Of a stretch of DNA of 64,000 nt, positions 52,877-57,897 are shown piece by piece. Each line of letters begins with the position of its first letter. Within the stretch, counting starts at the first letter, position 1. The DNA is taken from sequence record PV469800.1. One strand, 5' to 3'. The translations under genes and the position numbers were made by a program. The notes beneath the pieces were generated by a model that was given only the letters and a program-made list of their open reading frames with translations, was not told the DNA's origin and did no database searches. Origin of the DNA: Escherichia phage HMD-P10.

Positions 52877-52950
52877 CTCTGTTTAGCTCAGCTTGGTAGA
52901 GCGTTCCGTTTGGGGCGGTAAGGCCGGAGGTTCAAGTCCTCCAACAGAGA
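52877..52950 (+). tRNA. tRNA-Pro(UGG)
   Basis: hand-folded cloverleaf: acceptor CTCTGTT/AACAGAG, D-arm GCTC..GAGC, anticodon loop TTTGGGG, T-loop TTCAAGT, CCA encoded. Confidence 0.65.
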
Positions 52951-52960
52951 CCAAATTAAT

Positions 52961-53035
52961 GTTCCAGTAGACAAAACGGTAAAGTCACCACTCTTTCAAA
53001 GTGGATATTTGAGGGTTCAAATCCCTTCTGGAACG
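52961..53035 (+). tRNA. tRNA-Glu(UUC)
   Basis: acceptor GTTCCAG/CTGGAAC, anticodon stem CCACT/AGTGG, loop CTTTCAA, T-loop TTCAAAT. Confidence 0.65.
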
Positions 53036-53045
53036 CCAGTTTTGA

Positions 53046-53118
53046 CAGAAGACCAATTACAGCAAGCTTAATCTTATTCATCTGACACGAAATCGGACAA
53101 AGAAGAGATTTGGTCTGG
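53046..53118 (+). ncRNA. stem-closed structured RNA candidate (Y RNA-like element 1)
   Basis: starts CAGAAGACCA..ACAGCAA, ends TTGGTCTGG; termini base-pair; shared with elements 2-4. Confidence 0.35.
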
Positions 53119-53129
53119 TCATTAAGAAT

Positions 53130-53203
53130 TGCGGGTATAGAGAAAGGGCGTCTCACATGTCTCATTAGCATGGTATCGGCAGGTTCGACTCCTGCACCCG
53201 CCT
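53130..53203 (+). tRNA. tRNA with CAU anticodon (Met or Ile2)
   Basis: T-arm GCAGG-TTCGACT-CCTGC, anticodon loop CTCATTA; acceptor register ambiguous by 1 nt. Confidence 0.5.
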
Positions 53204-53212
53204 CCAATTTTG

Positions 53213-53272
53213 CAGAAGACCGTATGCAGCAACAAACTACTTTTTGCGGATAAAAGAAAAAACACGGTCTGG
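53213..53272 (+). ncRNA. stem-closed structured RNA candidate (Y RNA-like element 2)
   Basis: CAGAAGACCGT..GCAGCAA...ACGGTCTGG; 7-bp terminal helix. Confidence 0.35.
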
Positions 53273-53283
53273 CAATGTATTAA

Positions 53284-53357
53284 GGTTAGGAAGCACATAA
53301 GGTATGTGCGGTCGCCTGTTAAGCGAATGGCACAGGGTTCGAATCCCTGACTAACCG
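53284..53357 (+). tRNA. tRNA-Asn(GUU)
   Basis: acceptor GGTTAGG/ACTAACC, anticodon loop CTGTTAA, T-loop TTCGAAT, CCA encoded. Confidence 0.65.
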
Positions 53358-53369
53358 CCAAATTTAAAT

Positions 53370-53454
53370 GTGTCGTTATCCCGTAGATGGTAGCGGTGGG
53401 GACTGTAAATCCCTTGTCATTGAGACTCGGTAGGTTCGACTCCTACACGGCACA
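53370..53454 (+). tRNA. tRNA-Tyr(GUA), long variable arm
   Basis: acceptor GTGTCGT/ACGGCAC, anticodon loop CTGTAAA, 15-nt variable arm, T-loop TTCGACT. Confidence 0.6.
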
Positions 53455-53463
53455 CCAAATAAA

Positions 53464-53538
53464 GGTTATGTAGTTTAATCTGGTTAAAATACTCCCCTGT
53501 CACGGGAGATGATGAGGGTTCAAGTCCCTTCGTAACCG
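53464..53538 (+). tRNA. tRNA-Asp(GUC)
   Basis: acceptor GGTTATG/CGTAACC, anticodon stem CTCCC/GGGAG, loop CTGTCAC. Confidence 0.65.
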
Positions 53539-53627
53539 CCAAATTATAATAAGTATTTCAAAATGATGTTTGAGAGGGCTATTTAGCCCCTCCCTTAAAG
53601 GGTTCTTACGAGTATCCTTTAAAGGAG

Positions 53628-53701
53628 CAGAAGACCAAATACAGCAAGTTACTTAAAATTTCAAGCCAATTTAATTTTGAAAAATTTAAAACTTGGTCTG
53701 G
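53628..53701 (+). ncRNA. stem-closed structured RNA candidate (Y RNA-like element 3)
   Basis: CAGAAGACCAA..ACAGCAA...TTGGTCTGG. Confidence 0.35.
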
Positions 53702-53714
53702 CTCAACAAATTTA

Positions 53715-53845
53715 CAGAAGACCGTTTACAGCAAAACTTAAACAATCTATTTCTCGGTAAAGAAAAGGCGAAGGTTCGATTCCTTCACTCGGCAGATGTC
53801 GAGTTGGTGTAATGGTAGCACTTAAGATGACAAACAACGGTCTGG
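53715..53845 (+). ncRNA. stem-closed RNA with internal permuted tRNA-like module (YrlA-like candidate)
   Basis: termini AGACCGTT/AACGGTCT pair; inside: T-arm GAAGG-TTCGATT-CCTTC, 3' acceptor ACTCGGC, 3-nt turn, 5' acceptor GTCGAGT, D-arm GTG-TAATGGTAG-CAC. Confidence 0.4.
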
Positions 53846-55887: not shown

Positions 55888-55960
55888 GCAGGATTAGTTC
55901 AAATGGATAGAGCAACAGTCTACGAAGCTGTTAATAGGGGTTCGAATCCCTTATCCTGCG
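55888..55960 (+). tRNA. tRNA-Arg(ACG)
   Basis: acceptor GCAGGAT/ATCCTGC, D-arm GTTC..GAGC, anticodon loop CTACGAA, T-loop TTCGAAT. Confidence 0.65.
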
Positions 55961-55982
55961 CCAATTTAAAGAGGCTATTTAG

Positions 55983-56540
55983 ATGAGATATTTGAAGTAT
56001 GCTTCATGGATTTTCCTAGCTTTGTTAGAGCCATTTGCAGCAATCTTAGCAGTTATCTTAGCACCTTTTGTAGTTCCATTTTACAGTGAGAAGAAAGGAC
56101 ACTTACCTTTCGGATTTAGATGGATGGAAACTTACGACAACCCGATTGATGGTGATGAAGGCCATGTCAAACGATGGGCTAAGATTAGAAAGATTGGTAA
56201 GCTTGGTATCTATATGCAGAGAGTTGGTTGGCTCTGGAGAAACAAAGCTTATAACTTCTCTTACCATGTGTTAGGAAGAGATGTAAAAGATGTTACTAAG
56301 TGGAAAGGTAATATCAATGTAAGTTCTAACCCTGAAGATAATCAGACAGGTTATCTCCTAATGTGGAACAGTAATGCTTGGGGATTATTCGCTTTTATCC
56401 CATCAATTAAAGTCTTTGGTAAGCAATTCTACTGGAGAATTTATGTTGGATGGAAACTTAAAAGTGTTGTTCCAAAAGAAAGAGCATTCTCAAGGGAAAG
56501 AGTTATGTTGGCATTCTTTATTCATCCACTGAGAAAGTAA
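55983..56540 (+). CDS. hypothetical membrane protein embedded in tRNA cluster
   Basis: 185 aa; N-terminal hydrophobic helix; RBS AGAGG; flanked by tRNAs. Confidence 0.45.
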   Translation: MRYLKYASWIFLALLEPFAAILAVILAPFVVPFYSEKKGHLPFGFRWMETYDNPIDGDEGHVKRWAKIRKIGKLGIYMQRVGWLWRNKAYNFSYHVLGRDVKDVTKWKGNINVSSNPEDNQTGYLLMWNSNAWGLFAFIPSIKVFGKQFYWRIYVGWKLKSVVPKERAFSRERVMLAFFIHPLRK

Positions 56541-56548
56541 AGATTTAA

Positions 56549-56621
56549 AGGGGATTAGTTTACAAGGTTAAAACCTCGGTCTTTGAAATCGAAGAAGTTG
56601 GTTCAATTCCAACATCCCCCG
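56549..56621 (+). tRNA. tRNA-Gln(UUG)
   Basis: acceptor AGGGGAT/ATCCCCC (position 1 unpaired), D-stem GTTT/AAAC, anticodon loop CTTTGAA, T-arm GTTGG-TTCAATT-CCAAC. Confidence 0.6.
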
Positions 56622-56626
56622 CCAAT

Positions 56627-56702
56627 GCTCCATTACTCCAATTGGCAGAGAGGCCAGACTTAAAATCTGTGTTATGTATCGGTTCGAATCCGATATGGAG
56701 TA
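56627..56702 (+). tRNA. tRNA with UAA anticodon (Leu-type) and 7-nt variable region
   Basis: acceptor GCTCCAT/ATGGAGT, anticodon loop CTTAAAA, T-arm ATCGG-TTCGAAT-CCGAT, A73. Confidence 0.5.
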
Positions 56703-56710
56703 CCAAATTT

Positions 56711-56783
56711 AGCGGTATAGCATAACTGGCAATGCAGCAGTCTCTGAAGCTGTCTTATTAAGGTTCAAATCCTTATGCCGCTG
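56711..56783 (+). tRNA. tRNA-Gln(CUG)
   Basis: acceptor AGCGGTA/TGCCGCT, D-stem GCAT/ATGC, anticodon loop CTCTGAA, T-arm TAAGG-TTCAAAT-CCTTA. Confidence 0.6.
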
Positions 56784-56817
56784 CCACTCCTAAGGATTCT
56801 TACGAGAGTCCTTAAAT

Positions 56818-56890
56818 GTGGCCTTATCATAAATGGTAATGACCCATGCTGTGAACATGGTCTATACGGGTTCAAATCCCGTAGGTCACC
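56818..56890 (+). tRNA. tRNA-His(GUG)
   Basis: acceptor GTGGCCT/AGGTCAC, anticodon stem CCATG/CATGG, loop CTGTGAA, discriminator C73. Confidence 0.65.
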
Positions 56891-56899
56891 CCAATTTAT

Positions 56900-56973
56900 A
56901 GTCCAAGTAGCTTATATGGTTAAAGCGCGTGTCTGAAAAACATGAGAAGAGGGTTCAAATCCCACTGGACTAC
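56900..56973 (+). tRNA. tRNA-Phe(GAA)
   Basis: D-arm GCTT..AAGC, anticodon loop CTGAAAA, T-loop TTCAAAT; acceptor register uncertain by 1 nt. Confidence 0.5.
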
Positions 56974-56991
56974 CAATTTCAAAGGTGCTTA

Positions 56992-57726
56992 ATGAAAGAG
57001 ATGACAGAACAAGGTAAGGAGATTTTTAGTCTCTTAAAAACCGGTAGAGGGTTTTCTAATCCCCTTATTACTGGTGCAGCAGTTCTCGGTGGAACCGTAG
57101 CTGCCTCTACATCACTTGTAAGCTCTATTAGCTCTGTAACAGACCCTACAATAAAGGATAAACTTGTTGCTGCTGGACTTACAACAGTTCTGCTTAACAG
57201 CTTTACAACGAGTCTGACAAGCACTACATCGACTACTAAAACACTGACAGATTACGGTCAAAAGTCCATTGATGAGTTTTCATCACGTATGCAGGTAGCA
57301 AAAGGATATTCCAATGTTATGGGTGCAGCAGGAGAACAAGTCGGTTGTACGCCATTTAGTGGTATTATGGGCGTTGCTACAGAGTATGGTCAAAAAGCTA
57401 TGGATACAATTAACAGTGCACTAGATGGTGTTAATGATGTGTTAAGTGACTTACAAGATGCTATTGATGAAGGTCTTGATACTATTTCTGATTTAGCTAA
57501 CCAAGCTGTTAGCAAGATTAATGAAGGTATCTCGAAGATTACAGCTTATGCAGATGAAGTTGTGCAGATGATTGAAGAAGAAGCTGCCCTTATTGCAGAG
57601 TACCTTAAAACGAATATCAATGGGTTCTTAGCAGGTATCTTACCAGACTGGTTTGATGATGCTTGTAAAACTGGTGTAATTGATACTATTGCAACACCAG
57701 AAATGAAGAACGCATTACAGAAATAA
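56992..57726 (+). CDS. hypothetical Ser/Thr-rich protein
   Basis: ORF 56929..57726 trimmed to ATG 56992 because the upstream part overlaps tRNA-Phe. Confidence 0.45.
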   Translation: MKEMTEQGKEIFSLLKTGRGFSNPLITGAAVLGGTVAASTSLVSSISSVTDPTIKDKLVAAGLTTVLLNSFTTSLTSTTSTTKTLTDYGQKSIDEFSSRMQVAKGYSNVMGAAGEQVGCTPFSGIMGVATEYGQKAMDTINSALDGVNDVLSDLQDAIDEGLDTISDLANQAVSKINEGISKITAYADEVVQMIEEEAALIAEYLKTNINGFLAGILPDWFDDACKTGVIDTIATPEMKNALQK

Positions 57727-57727
57727 C

Positions 57728-57817
57728 GGAAGATTAACCCTAAAAGGTAAGGGAGCAGTTTGCTAAACTGCCAGTAGCTGAGAAATCGGTGTACCAGTTC
57801 AAGTCTGGTATCTTCCT
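57728..57817 (+). tRNA. tRNA-Ser(GCU), long variable arm
   Basis: acceptor GGAAGAT/ATCTTCC, anticodon stem GCAGT/ACTGC, loop TTGCTAA, T-arm ACCAG-TTCAAGT-CTGGT. Confidence 0.6.
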
Positions 57818-57824
57818 CCAATTT

Positions 57825-57897
57825 GAATCCGTGACAGAAATGGCTATGTACCTGTCTGCAAAACAGGTTTATAAGGGTTCGAGTCCCTTCGGATTCT
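57825..57897 (+). tRNA. tRNA-Cys(GCA)
   Basis: acceptor GAATCCG/CGGATTC, anticodon stem CCTGT/ACAGG, loop CTGCAAA, T-arm AAGGG-TTCGAGT-CCCTT. Confidence 0.6.

Follow-up and report, generated by a model that had tools for sequence, protein, structure and literature searches.

The 64,000-nucleotide stretch of Escherichia phage HMD-P10 analyzed here (sequence record PV469800.1; hereafter the window) contains the transfer RNA (tRNA) gene array of a Felixounavirus, that is, of a Felix O1-like, ~88-kb virulent myophage of E. coli and Salmonella, and four structured RNA elements that are not tRNAs are interleaved with the first tRNAs of this array, within its first 1 kb. We consider the four elements candidate Y RNAs of a divergent type. 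The gene immediately 5' of the array, on the same strand, encodes a protein that models as a Ro60 ring. Taken as a whole, the region is likely to be a Felixounavirus tRNA array (26 canonical genes and one Trp-like gene) with embedded candidate Y-RNA partners of this Ro60-like protein. A preliminary description of the same DNA, made from the letters only, had viewed the whole 5 kb as tRNAs and spacers; the four structured RNAs at 53043-53848 were missed in it.

Four structured RNAs and their Ro60-like neighbor

A repeat pattern, CAGAAGACC-NNN-TRCAGCAA ... NNN-GGTCTGG, was noticed in the spacers. Its core, AGAAGACC-N5-CAGCAA, has four exact matches, all inside 53047-53734, and four of the five occurrences of GGTCTGG in the 64 kb close these elements. 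In every copy the 5' and 3' ends pair, and an AGA/G internal loop separates the outer helix of 4 bp (H1) from a second one of 7 bp (H2); the motif U-W-C-M-G-C-A-A is conserved after H2, whose start is G-C. Among the copies, H1 differs in a compensatory manner (all four versions are listed in Table 1), as does the inner end of H2 (CAA/TTG versus CGT/ACG).

Elements 1-3 are short and have no tRNA-like domain. Element 4 has one, in the order V (variable) arm, T arm (GAAGG-UUCGAUU-CCUUC), 7-bp acceptor-like hairpin with a 4-nt loop, and D arm (GUGU-AAUGGUA-GCAC); equivalents of U8, A14, G18G19, U54U55C56, and A58 are present, the conserved closing stems occupy the place of the anticodon arm, and the minimum free energy fold is the same cloverleaf as that of the RNAalifold alignment. 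The acceptor hairpin has three forms in three lineages (ACTCGGC/GTCGAGT, ACACG/CGTGT, and ACCCTTC/GAAGGGT), with the T and D arms constant; three unrelated hairpins between unchanged arms therefore indicate selection on RNA structure and not a decaying pseudogene. The four copies recur at matching positions in Felix O1, pEP20, SUSP2, Sf14, Moogle, and Mordin, and the elements are kept in Felixounavirus, Suspvirus, and Mooglevirus, in >230 deposited genomes. They are absent from Rfam 15. A minus-strand open reading frame (ORF) placed over element 4 in some records (bas63_0137) is not kept open in other genera.

Two other identities were tried and rejected. The AGAA loop, together with CUGAAGA at 55697, had hinted at a hairpin or hammerhead ribozyme, but 52600-58300 has no match to an Rfam ribozyme at E<=10. 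A circularly permuted tRNA-Leu was suggested by the way in which the halves are ordered, by the long variable arm, and by the 'CAA' before the stem; the closing stems and CAGCAA proved common to the three tRNA-less paralogs and to short forms from other phages, and neither a CCA between the halves nor a reconstitutable 7-nt anticodon loop was present. Element 4 resembles permuted tRNA genes of the Cyanidioschyzon merolae type in having the 3' half before the 5' half, but it is without their bulge-helix-bulge junction, anticodon loop, and CCA.

The elements accompany homologs of the upstream gene (DUF2828) in other phages. A total of 80 viral contigs with homologs of its product were collected, 75 of them (L012-L086) at 39-47% identity. 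A covariance model (CM), R1, built from seven element-4 orthologs and searched against both strands of 81 sources (716 kb), gave 61 matches at E<=1, all 61 of them on the strand of the DUF2828 gene; of the distant loci (~40% protein identity), 20 contained 26 R1 matches between them, with a median distance to the gene of 380 nt. In the R1-derived alignment, 92.6% of cells pair, compared with ~40% when the partners are slid, double changes occur in 32 of 33 pairs, and helix 2 is 98% paired with CG/AU/GC/UA alternation, covariation counts that are inflated because the alignment was fitted to the model. An independent, strict descriptor (7-bp helix abutting T[ATG]C[ACT]GCA, tail TG or AG) had 36 matches on the gene strand, two on the opposite strand, and 1-3 in shuffled sequences; an earlier, loose helix scan was noisy (58 matches on the + strand versus 32 on the - strand). 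The family consensus is AA-G-N6-U-W-C-M-G-C-A-A ... N6-C-U-G, with short forms of ~55-75 nt having an A/U-rich interior and long forms having a tRNA-like domain, and the unpaired UWCMGCAA motif is conserved to ~40% protein identity. Elements also stand at DUF2828 loci without any tRNA gene (L048, L049, L057, L060, L075, and L086). Four distant long forms are matched over their full length by Rfam YrlA at 38.9, 36.7, 28.7, and 24.7 bits (best E 5e-5; gathering score 69), the aligned parts being T arm, acceptor stem, and D arm and not the closing stem.

Around the same distant genes, 119 tRNA genes lie within 4 kb of DUF2828 in 23 of the 75 loci, all on the gene strand; a Ro60-like gene with a tRNA array is for this reason a recurrent module far beyond Ounavirinae. 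At one locus, a two-piece (permuted) transfer-messenger RNA (tmRNA) gene (L029:293-616), which passes its Rfam threshold with 71.7 bits, lies upstream of the DUF2828 homolog by a few kb and on the same strand.

The product of the upstream gene is the ortholog of Bas63 gp130 (bas63_0130) and of Felix O1 ORF42, 'RNA-binding protein'. An AlphaFold2 model based on a 41-homolog alignment had a mean predicted local distance difference test score (pLDDT) of 87 (a single-sequence model, at 46.6, was unusable). The top 10 fold matches of this model in PDB were all Ro60/Rsr (query-based template modeling score, TMq, 0.48-0.67; E 4e-8 to 1e-6; 504-567 columns), comprising Xenopus and human Ro60, Deinococcus Rsr, and Thermus phage phiLo Ro60, and were followed by isolated von Willebrand factor A (vWA) domains. 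The DxSxS of the MIDAS (an adhesion site that depends on metal ions; D279/S281/S283) is invariant in the 41 homologs. The protein models as a Ro60 ring (HEAT-repeat) plus a vWA domain with a MIDAS motif, a relationship that emerged from the fold search only, sequence searches being silent. In a 2024 preprint, gp130 is described as structurally Ro60-like and as countering the Ppl defense, with speculation on Y RNAs among the tRNAs. A paper search for 'DUF2828' returned plant and tardigrade gene lists only. In the literature searched, the elements appear only as this unlocalized speculation, the 22-phage YrlA list of Chen et al. 2014 not having been compared; a later paper on phage YrlA names mycobacteriophages, CcrColossus, and Bacillus phage G only.

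YrlA is a tRNA-mimicking bacterial Y RNA bound by Rsr, the Ro60 ortholog; the stem that binds the protein is made from its 5' and 3' ends, after which come V arm, T arm, a closed acceptor stem, and D arm, and its gene lies no more than 4 kb from rsr, on that gene's strand (Chen et al. 2014). In the window, the copies are 330-1140 nt downstream of the Ro60-like gene, same strand, and thus within these 4 kb. Multicopy small RNAs near a Ro60-fold protein on the same strand are likewise found in the systems described so (YrlA/YrlB with Rsr, mycobacteriophage, CcrColossus, Bacillus phage G, and phiLo with Yrl1/2); a bulged stem made from the 5' and 3' ends and a conserved motif near the 5' side are common to known Y RNAs, and the YrlA topology (V, T, closed acceptor, and D arm) is present in element 4. 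There are also differences. UWCMGCAA stands in the HMD-P10 elements where Y RNAs have GNCGAAN0-1G or CGAA, and the Rfam YrlA alignment does not place UWCMGCAA on CGAA; the HMD-P10 protein is DUF2828/DUF7788, not TROVE; and the elements are interleaved with genuine tRNA genes, unlike in described Y-RNA systems. The elements are called candidate Y RNAs of a divergent type because the motif and the Rfam threshold fail and the protein is not TROVE at the sequence level.

The four RNAs would probably be released from the same precursors as the tRNAs, and the Ro60-like ring protein (gp130) would bind the conserved stem and motif of elements 1-4. As in the particles of Rsr with YrlA and of phage phiLo Ro60 with Yrl, a tRNA-recognizing host factor (RNase P, PNPase, or modification enzymes) may find a handle in the tRNA-like module of element 4; the acceptor hairpin of this element could be opened by RNase P and gain CCA, as in M. 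smegmatis YrlA. The resulting ribonucleoprotein would connect the supply of phage tRNAs with evasion of defenses or with manipulation of how host RNA is degraded or repaired. We give an even chance to the wider proposal that the elements are founding members of a distinct and widespread class of phage Y RNAs, with a DUF2828/DUF7788 partner, a motif of their own (UWCMGCAA plus G-bulged stem), short and tRNA-mimic forms, and frequent co-transcription with tRNA arrays.

The tRNA array and its structured spacers

The preliminary description counted 27 plus-strand cloverleaves in 5 kb. ARAGORN, run on the 64-kb window, placed 26 tRNA genes at 52877-57900, every one of them on the + strand, and called no other in the remaining 59 kb; the 27th (Trp) is atypical and was not detected by ARAGORN. 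The list of anticodons stands as first given, with three for Leu (UAG, CAA, and UAA), two each for Ser (UGA/GCU), Arg (UCU/ACG), Lys (UUU/CUU), and Gln (UUG/CUG), and CAU twice; single genes serve Pro, Glu, Asn, Tyr, Asp, Ile, Ala, Gly, Thr, Val, His, Phe, and Cys. Most of the hand-called genes lie above the covariance threshold, 24 of the 27 being at or above the gathering score of Rfam RF00005 (29 bits), at 31.1-63.9 bits. A 3' CCA is encoded in 25 of the 26 ARAGORN genes and in the Trp-like element (26 of 27 in total). The 26 genes account for 19 amino acids, and the twentieth hangs on the one atypical gene; coverage of all 20, as first claimed, is plausible but not established.

Table 1 Features of the window in and around the tRNA array. 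Positions are those of the 64-kb window; H1 and H2, outer and inner helix of the elements; scores under Rfam are in bits.
Feature	Position	Strand	Basis and remarks
Ro60-like gene, 471 aa, DUF2828 + DUF7788	51296..52711	+	Pfam; model fold search; synteny with bas63_0130
Sigma70-like match TTGACA-17-TAATAT	52730..52758	+	Consensus only
Sigma70-like match TTGACA-18-TAAAGT, TG extended	52821..52850	+	Consensus only
tRNA-Pro (UGG)	52877..52953	+	ARAGORN; Rfam 57.7
tRNA-Glu (UUC)	52961..53038	+	ARAGORN; Rfam 60.6
Candidate Y RNA, element 1, short	53043..53121	+	H1 TGAC/GTCA; H2 AGACCAA/TTGGTCT; motif UACAGCAA; CM R1 34.3 bits, E 3e-4
CAU tRNA, Met-type	53130..53206	+	ARAGORN; under Rfam threshold; Cove 28.9 in Felix O1
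Candidate Y RNA, element 2, short	53210..53275	+	H1 TTGC/GCAA; H2 AGACCGT/ACGGTCT; motif UGCAGCAA; CM R1 43.3 bits, E 3e-6
tRNA-Asn (GUU)	53284..53360	+	ARAGORN; Rfam 48.0
tRNA-Tyr (GUA), long variable arm	53370..53457	+	ARAGORN; unreported by RF00005; tRNA-Sec 29.6 bits
tRNA-Asp (GUC)	53464..53541	+	ARAGORN; Rfam 63.9
Candidate Y RNA, element 3, short	53625..53704	+	H1 GAGC/GCTC; H2 AGACCAA/TTGGTCT; motif UACAGCAA
Candidate Y RNA, element 4, long YrlA-type	53712..53848	+	H1 TTAC/GTAA; H2 AGACCGTT/AACGGTCT; motif UACAGCAA; CM R1 170 bits
Branched hairpin, 144 nt, ~24-bp closing stem	53847..53990	+	-50 kcal/mol, z -6.2
tRNA-Lys (UUU)	53995..54070	+	ARAGORN; Rfam 54.4
CAU tRNA (Met or Ile2)	54075..54151	+	ARAGORN; Rfam 54.3
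tRNA-Ile (GAU)	54153..54228	+	ARAGORN; Rfam 63.4
Best sigma70-like match TTGACA-17-TATAGT	54244..54272	+	Consensus scan, 11/12
tRNA-Arg (UCU)	54566..54642	+	ARAGORN; Rfam 62.8
tRNA-Trp-like gene	54785..54867	+	Not ARAGORN; Rfam tRNA-Sec 23 bits; conserved
tRNA-Ser (UGA)	54881..54970	+	ARAGORN; Rfam 31.1; sole array gene without encoded CCA (CCT)
Small hairpin + T run (terminator of the preliminary description)	55126..55145	+	Folding energy
tRNA-Leu (UAG), short variable loop	55227..55303	+	ARAGORN; Rfam 57.3
tRNA-Lys (CUU)	55311..55386	+	ARAGORN; Rfam 56.9
tRNA-Ala (UGC)	55393..55468	+	ARAGORN; Rfam 56.9
tRNA-Gly (UCC)	55475..55549	+	ARAGORN; Rfam 59.6
tRNA-Thr (UGU)	55556..55632	+	ARAGORN; Rfam 54.7
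tRNA-Val (UAC)	55729..55803	+	ARAGORN; Rfam 60.0
tRNA-Leu (CAA), short variable loop	55805..55882	+	ARAGORN; Rfam 44.0
tRNA-Arg (ACG)	55888..55963	+	ARAGORN; Rfam 59.8
Protein gene within array, 185 aa, DUF7338	55983..56540	+	Pfam
tRNA-Gln (UUG)	56549..56624	+	ARAGORN; Rfam 56.6
tRNA-Leu (UAA), short variable loop	56627..56705	+	ARAGORN; Rfam 47.5
tRNA-Gln (CUG)	56711..56786	+	ARAGORN; Rfam 58.7
tRNA-His (GUG)	56818..56893	+	ARAGORN; Rfam 53.3
tRNA-Phe (GAA)	56900..56975	+	ARAGORN; Rfam 45.0
Protein gene within array, 244 aa, DUF7217	56992..57726	+	Pfam
tRNA-Ser (GCU)	57728..57820	+	ARAGORN; Rfam 46.2
tRNA-Cys (GCA)	57825..57900	+	ARAGORN; Rfam 56.6

The 27th gene of the preliminary count must be 54785-54867, because the 26 ARAGORN genes cover 19 amino acids and Trp is absent from them. 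This element is a probable, atypical tRNA-Trp. Its cloverleaf has a 7-8 bp acceptor stem, the anticodon CCA in the loop CCUCCAAAA (9 nt, or 7 nt given a C31-A39 mismatch), an oversized D region, a T arm, G73, and CCA at its end. Its conservation extends to Suspvirus, Mooglevirus, and a distant 88-kb phage (L012); in the window the anticodon stem reads AACGG/CCGTT and, by compensatory change, GTAAG/CTTAC in Mordin, the T stem covaries, and six pairs in total show double changes, substitutions that therefore indicate selection on structure. At 80% thresholds, ARAGORN returned obvious false positives only, plus an uninterpretable call across this element.

Some of the canonical genes have irregular features. 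The CAU tRNA at 53130-53206 has a U1-C72 mismatch, 3 nt separating acceptor and D stem, U37, and an irregular D-arm junction; tRNA-Tyr is labeled pseudogene or tRNA-OTHER in tRNAscan-based records. Both CAU tRNAs (53130-53206 and 54075-54151) have U73, and each may be Met, initiator-like, or Ile2 (lysidine); ATA makes up 6% of the Ile codons. The three tRNA-Leu genes are 77-79 nt long, with a variable loop of 4-7 nt where bacterial class II tRNA-Leu has a long variable arm, and keep A73 and the Leu-type D loop (AAYUGGYAGAG), likewise in the distant phage L012; a literature search on class-I-like tRNA-Leu in phages gave nothing relevant.

The best database relative of 52600-58200 has 97.4% identity at 100% query coverage; 232 phage records cover >=80% of this region, and >100 sequenced Felixounavirus phages match the 5.6-kb region over its full length at 95-98% identity. 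The nearest relatives, pEP20 and Bas63 (JohannRWettstein), carry annotations of these 26 tRNAs in an unchanged order; gene order is identical in Felix O1, wV8, Bas63, pEP20, and other Felixounavirus/Ounavirinae, and across Felixounavirus, Suspvirus, and Mooglevirus tRNA order and sequence are retained at 80-97% identity. The flanks are also those of Felix O1-type phages (DUF2828 gene upstream, terminase downstream). Felix O1 carries HNH endonuclease insertions, which the HMD-P10 array does not; otherwise there is essentially no difference. Relatives bear tRNA-like genes not called by ARAGORN (L006:2700-2790, L008:7700-7790, and L002:2240-2320): Felix O1-type genomes have an extra Arg(UCU)-type sequence with a long extra arm, and SUSP2, Moogle, and Mordin have a T-arm/CCA-ending element 3' of tRNA-Arg. 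Gene content of the array differs between genera.

T4 (8 tRNAs) and T5 (~24) belong to a different phage family and, beyond individual tRNAs (weak matches), have no sequence relationship with the array. Their tRNA genes are likewise co-oriented and closely packed, small ORFs and structured spacers lie among them, both phages are lytic and AT-rich, and the same roles, codon supply and counter-defense, have been proposed for them. We know of no Ro60-like gene beside the tRNA genes of T4 or T5.

HMD-P10 has the full, 26-gene version of the array by ARAGORN; published tRNAscan counts for relatives are lower because tRNAscan-SE rejects weak-scoring genes. They amount to 22 tRNAs, with Tyr marked as a pseudogene, in Felix O1 (PMC3185647), 23 in wV8, and 17-23 in a survey of the genus.

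Codon usage was counted in the 49 long ORFs of the window (14,057 codons, 38.7% G+C). Codons ending in A or T dominate (AGA 29% of Arg, CCA 52% of Pro, GCA 43% of Ala, ACA 37% of Thr, GTA 33% of Val, TTA 26% of Leu, and CAA 54% of Gln), and the phage tRNAs are mostly U34 species cognate to these; most anticodons of the array are of U34 or G34 types, jointly able to read nearly every codon. The anticodons match the A/T-ending codons, which the 39% G+C phage uses far more than its ~51% G+C hosts, and because of this match the array would most likely top up decoding capacity late in infection, a role already proposed in the literature. In the Felix O1 paper (PMC3185647) the same codon argument is made, with codons over-used relative to Salmonella and 7 tRNAs that could affect translation. 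Host RNA polymerase would probably produce polycistronic precursors from sigma70-type promoters, and the tRNAs would be excised from these by host RNase P and 3' processing enzymes.

The three sigma70-like promoters of the preliminary description are indeed the top three consensus matches on the + strand (10-11/12), although the total for the region (12) is not above that of shuffled sequence (13.6). Its internal terminator near 55128 exists as a hairpin (55126-55145, -8.7 kcal/mol, z -4.2) but fails a terminator scan, and it overlaps and competes with a far stronger 90-nt hairpin at 55136-55225 (-37.6 kcal/mol, z -5.3). The existence of several transcription units with an internal terminator is a conjecture read from consensus matches. 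The branched hairpin at 53847-53990 directly precedes tRNA-Lys and is possibly a processing site or a small RNA; it may be confined to Felixounavirus, because DNA matches to Suspvirus and Mooglevirus end near 53875. In the Bas63 annotation a minus-strand 'hypothetical protein' covers it. Stable long hairpins are also found in other spacers (55136-55225, 55637-55723, 54527-54562, and 53590-53627; z -3.7 to -5.3), where they stop a few bases 5' of a tRNA start; these may be RNase III-type pre-tRNA processing sites. The ~300 nt that follow the 54244 promoter match (54244-54565) have no ORF or tRNA, fold stably at 54275-54420 (z -3.4), give weak, non-significant tmRNA-like Rfam matches (22 and 15 bits), and may be another small RNA; their counterpart in Felix O1, between tRNA-Lys and tRNA-Ile, is an HNH endonuclease gene.

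Opposing evidence and rival explanations

A number of results weigh against the reading of the region as an array of tRNAs with embedded Y-RNA partners of a Ro60-like protein. For the upstream protein, Pfam gives DUF2828 and DUF7788 alone, with no TROVE, and phmmer and profile searches of PDB gave no Ro60 and no match to any other entry by sequence. The canonical Ro60-binding motif is absent from the window copies in its bacterial (GNCGAAN0-1G), phiLo (CGAA), and animal (GGUCCGA) versions; Rfam YrlA (RF02553; gathering score 69 bits) has no match in the window at E<=10; CM R1 leaves the window copy of element 3 unreported and finds its Moogle ortholog at just E 0.38; and the inflation of the covariation counts mentioned above belongs here too. 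The gene gp130 alone shielded T7 from the Ppl defense, so that the Ppl phenotype at least arises without need of phage RNAs. Among the tRNA genes, Met 53130, Tyr 53370, and the Trp-like element fall under the gathering score of RF00005; Met 53130, Tyr 53370, and Ser 54881 are weak scorers; and the Trp-like element is uncalled by ARAGORN at default and even at 85% thresholds, its best Rfam match being tRNA-Sec with just 23 bits. The tRNAs of the sister phage Bas63 are mostly non-essential on four laboratory hosts (PMC11482910).

The repeats might be spacer or processing signals of the pre-tRNA transcript (guide hairpins for RNase III, E, or P) and not trans-acting RNAs, with copy 4 as the remnant of a tandem tRNA duplication (T arm plus next D arm). 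Their place between tRNAs and their single orientation agree with this, other spacers of the array also form very stable hairpins directly 5' of tRNAs, and Chen et al. 2014 warn of tandem tRNAs that mimic YrlA. Both the spacer and the remnant model are most strongly opposed by the tRNA-free loci in which the element adjoins DUF2828 genes; copy 4, moreover, lacks a first tRNA's 5' half, a second tRNA's 3' half, and a CCA between the halves, its acceptor hairpin was replaced compensatorily three times with T and D arms constant, and UWCMGCAA is conserved to ~40% protein identity. We regard this explanation as unlikely. A cis-regulatory operator on the DUF2828 mRNA, for autoregulation or transcript stability, would suit the many distant loci in which one copy, on the strand of the gene, lies either 6-190 nt upstream or 14-110 nt downstream of it. 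We hold it highly improbable: up to five copies occur per locus, some of them ~3 kb off, and some copies contain a complete tRNA-like domain with no obvious role in an untranslated region; in the window even the nearest copy lies 330 nt downstream, past two promoter-like sites and two tRNAs.

For the array itself, the match between codon usage and U34 anticodons fits the earlier suggestion of supplemented host decoding, while the qualifier that the phage 'substantially supplements' it is not established, because the Bas63 tRNAs are mostly dispensable on laboratory hosts. Evasion of tRNA-targeting defenses is equally open, and the two roles are not mutually exclusive. That the array is mainly a counter-defense device, in which phage tRNAs replace or outlast host tRNAs cut or depleted by anticodon nucleases and other tRNA-targeting immunity, with the Ro60-like protein as part of the same RNA-protection toolkit, is a possibility we hold tentatively, at well under even odds. 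The Lys(UUU), Tyr, Asn, Asp, His, and Arg tRNAs are known targets of anticodon nucleases, and the array includes all of them. Further points in its favor are the description of the mostly non-essential Bas63 tRNAs as a conditional toolbox, the adjoining gp130, an experimentally shown counter-defense gene against Ppl, and the co-oriented tRNA arrays that adjoin DUF2828 genes in 23 of 75 distant phage loci; the anticodon set, however, follows the A/T-rich codon preference of the phage, as codon supply predicts. Decay of much of the array into non-functional pseudo-tRNAs moved along by homing-endonuclease traffic is the least probable of the alternatives weighed here: Tyr is indeed flagged as a pseudogene in tRNAscan-based records, from which Met, Asn, Ser, and others are absent, and relatives have HNH endonuclease insertions and differing gene complements, but 24 genes score 31-64 bits with RF00005, order and sequence are retained at 80-97% identity over three genera, and even the Trp-like gene has compensatory substitutions that indicate selection on structure.

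Meaning of the findings

The tRNA array as first noted is an already known feature of a known phage genus, because the Felix O1 array and its codon-usage argument were published in 2010; on its own this textbook feature of Felix O1-like phages adds nothing new. The part worth pursuing is that >230 sequenced phage genomes carry four conserved structured RNAs without annotation, over which some records instead place spurious minus-strand 'hypothetical proteins'. The elements are a concrete candidate answer to the question raised in the 2024 preprint, namely which RNAs, if any, partner gp130. If this link is true, the Y RNA/Ro60 system would extend to DUF2828, a very large phage protein family with thousands of homologs in phage genomes, Rfam would gain a new RNA motif, and exact coordinates would be at hand in a tractable model (Bas63 or Felix O1, in E. 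coli K-12 or Salmonella).

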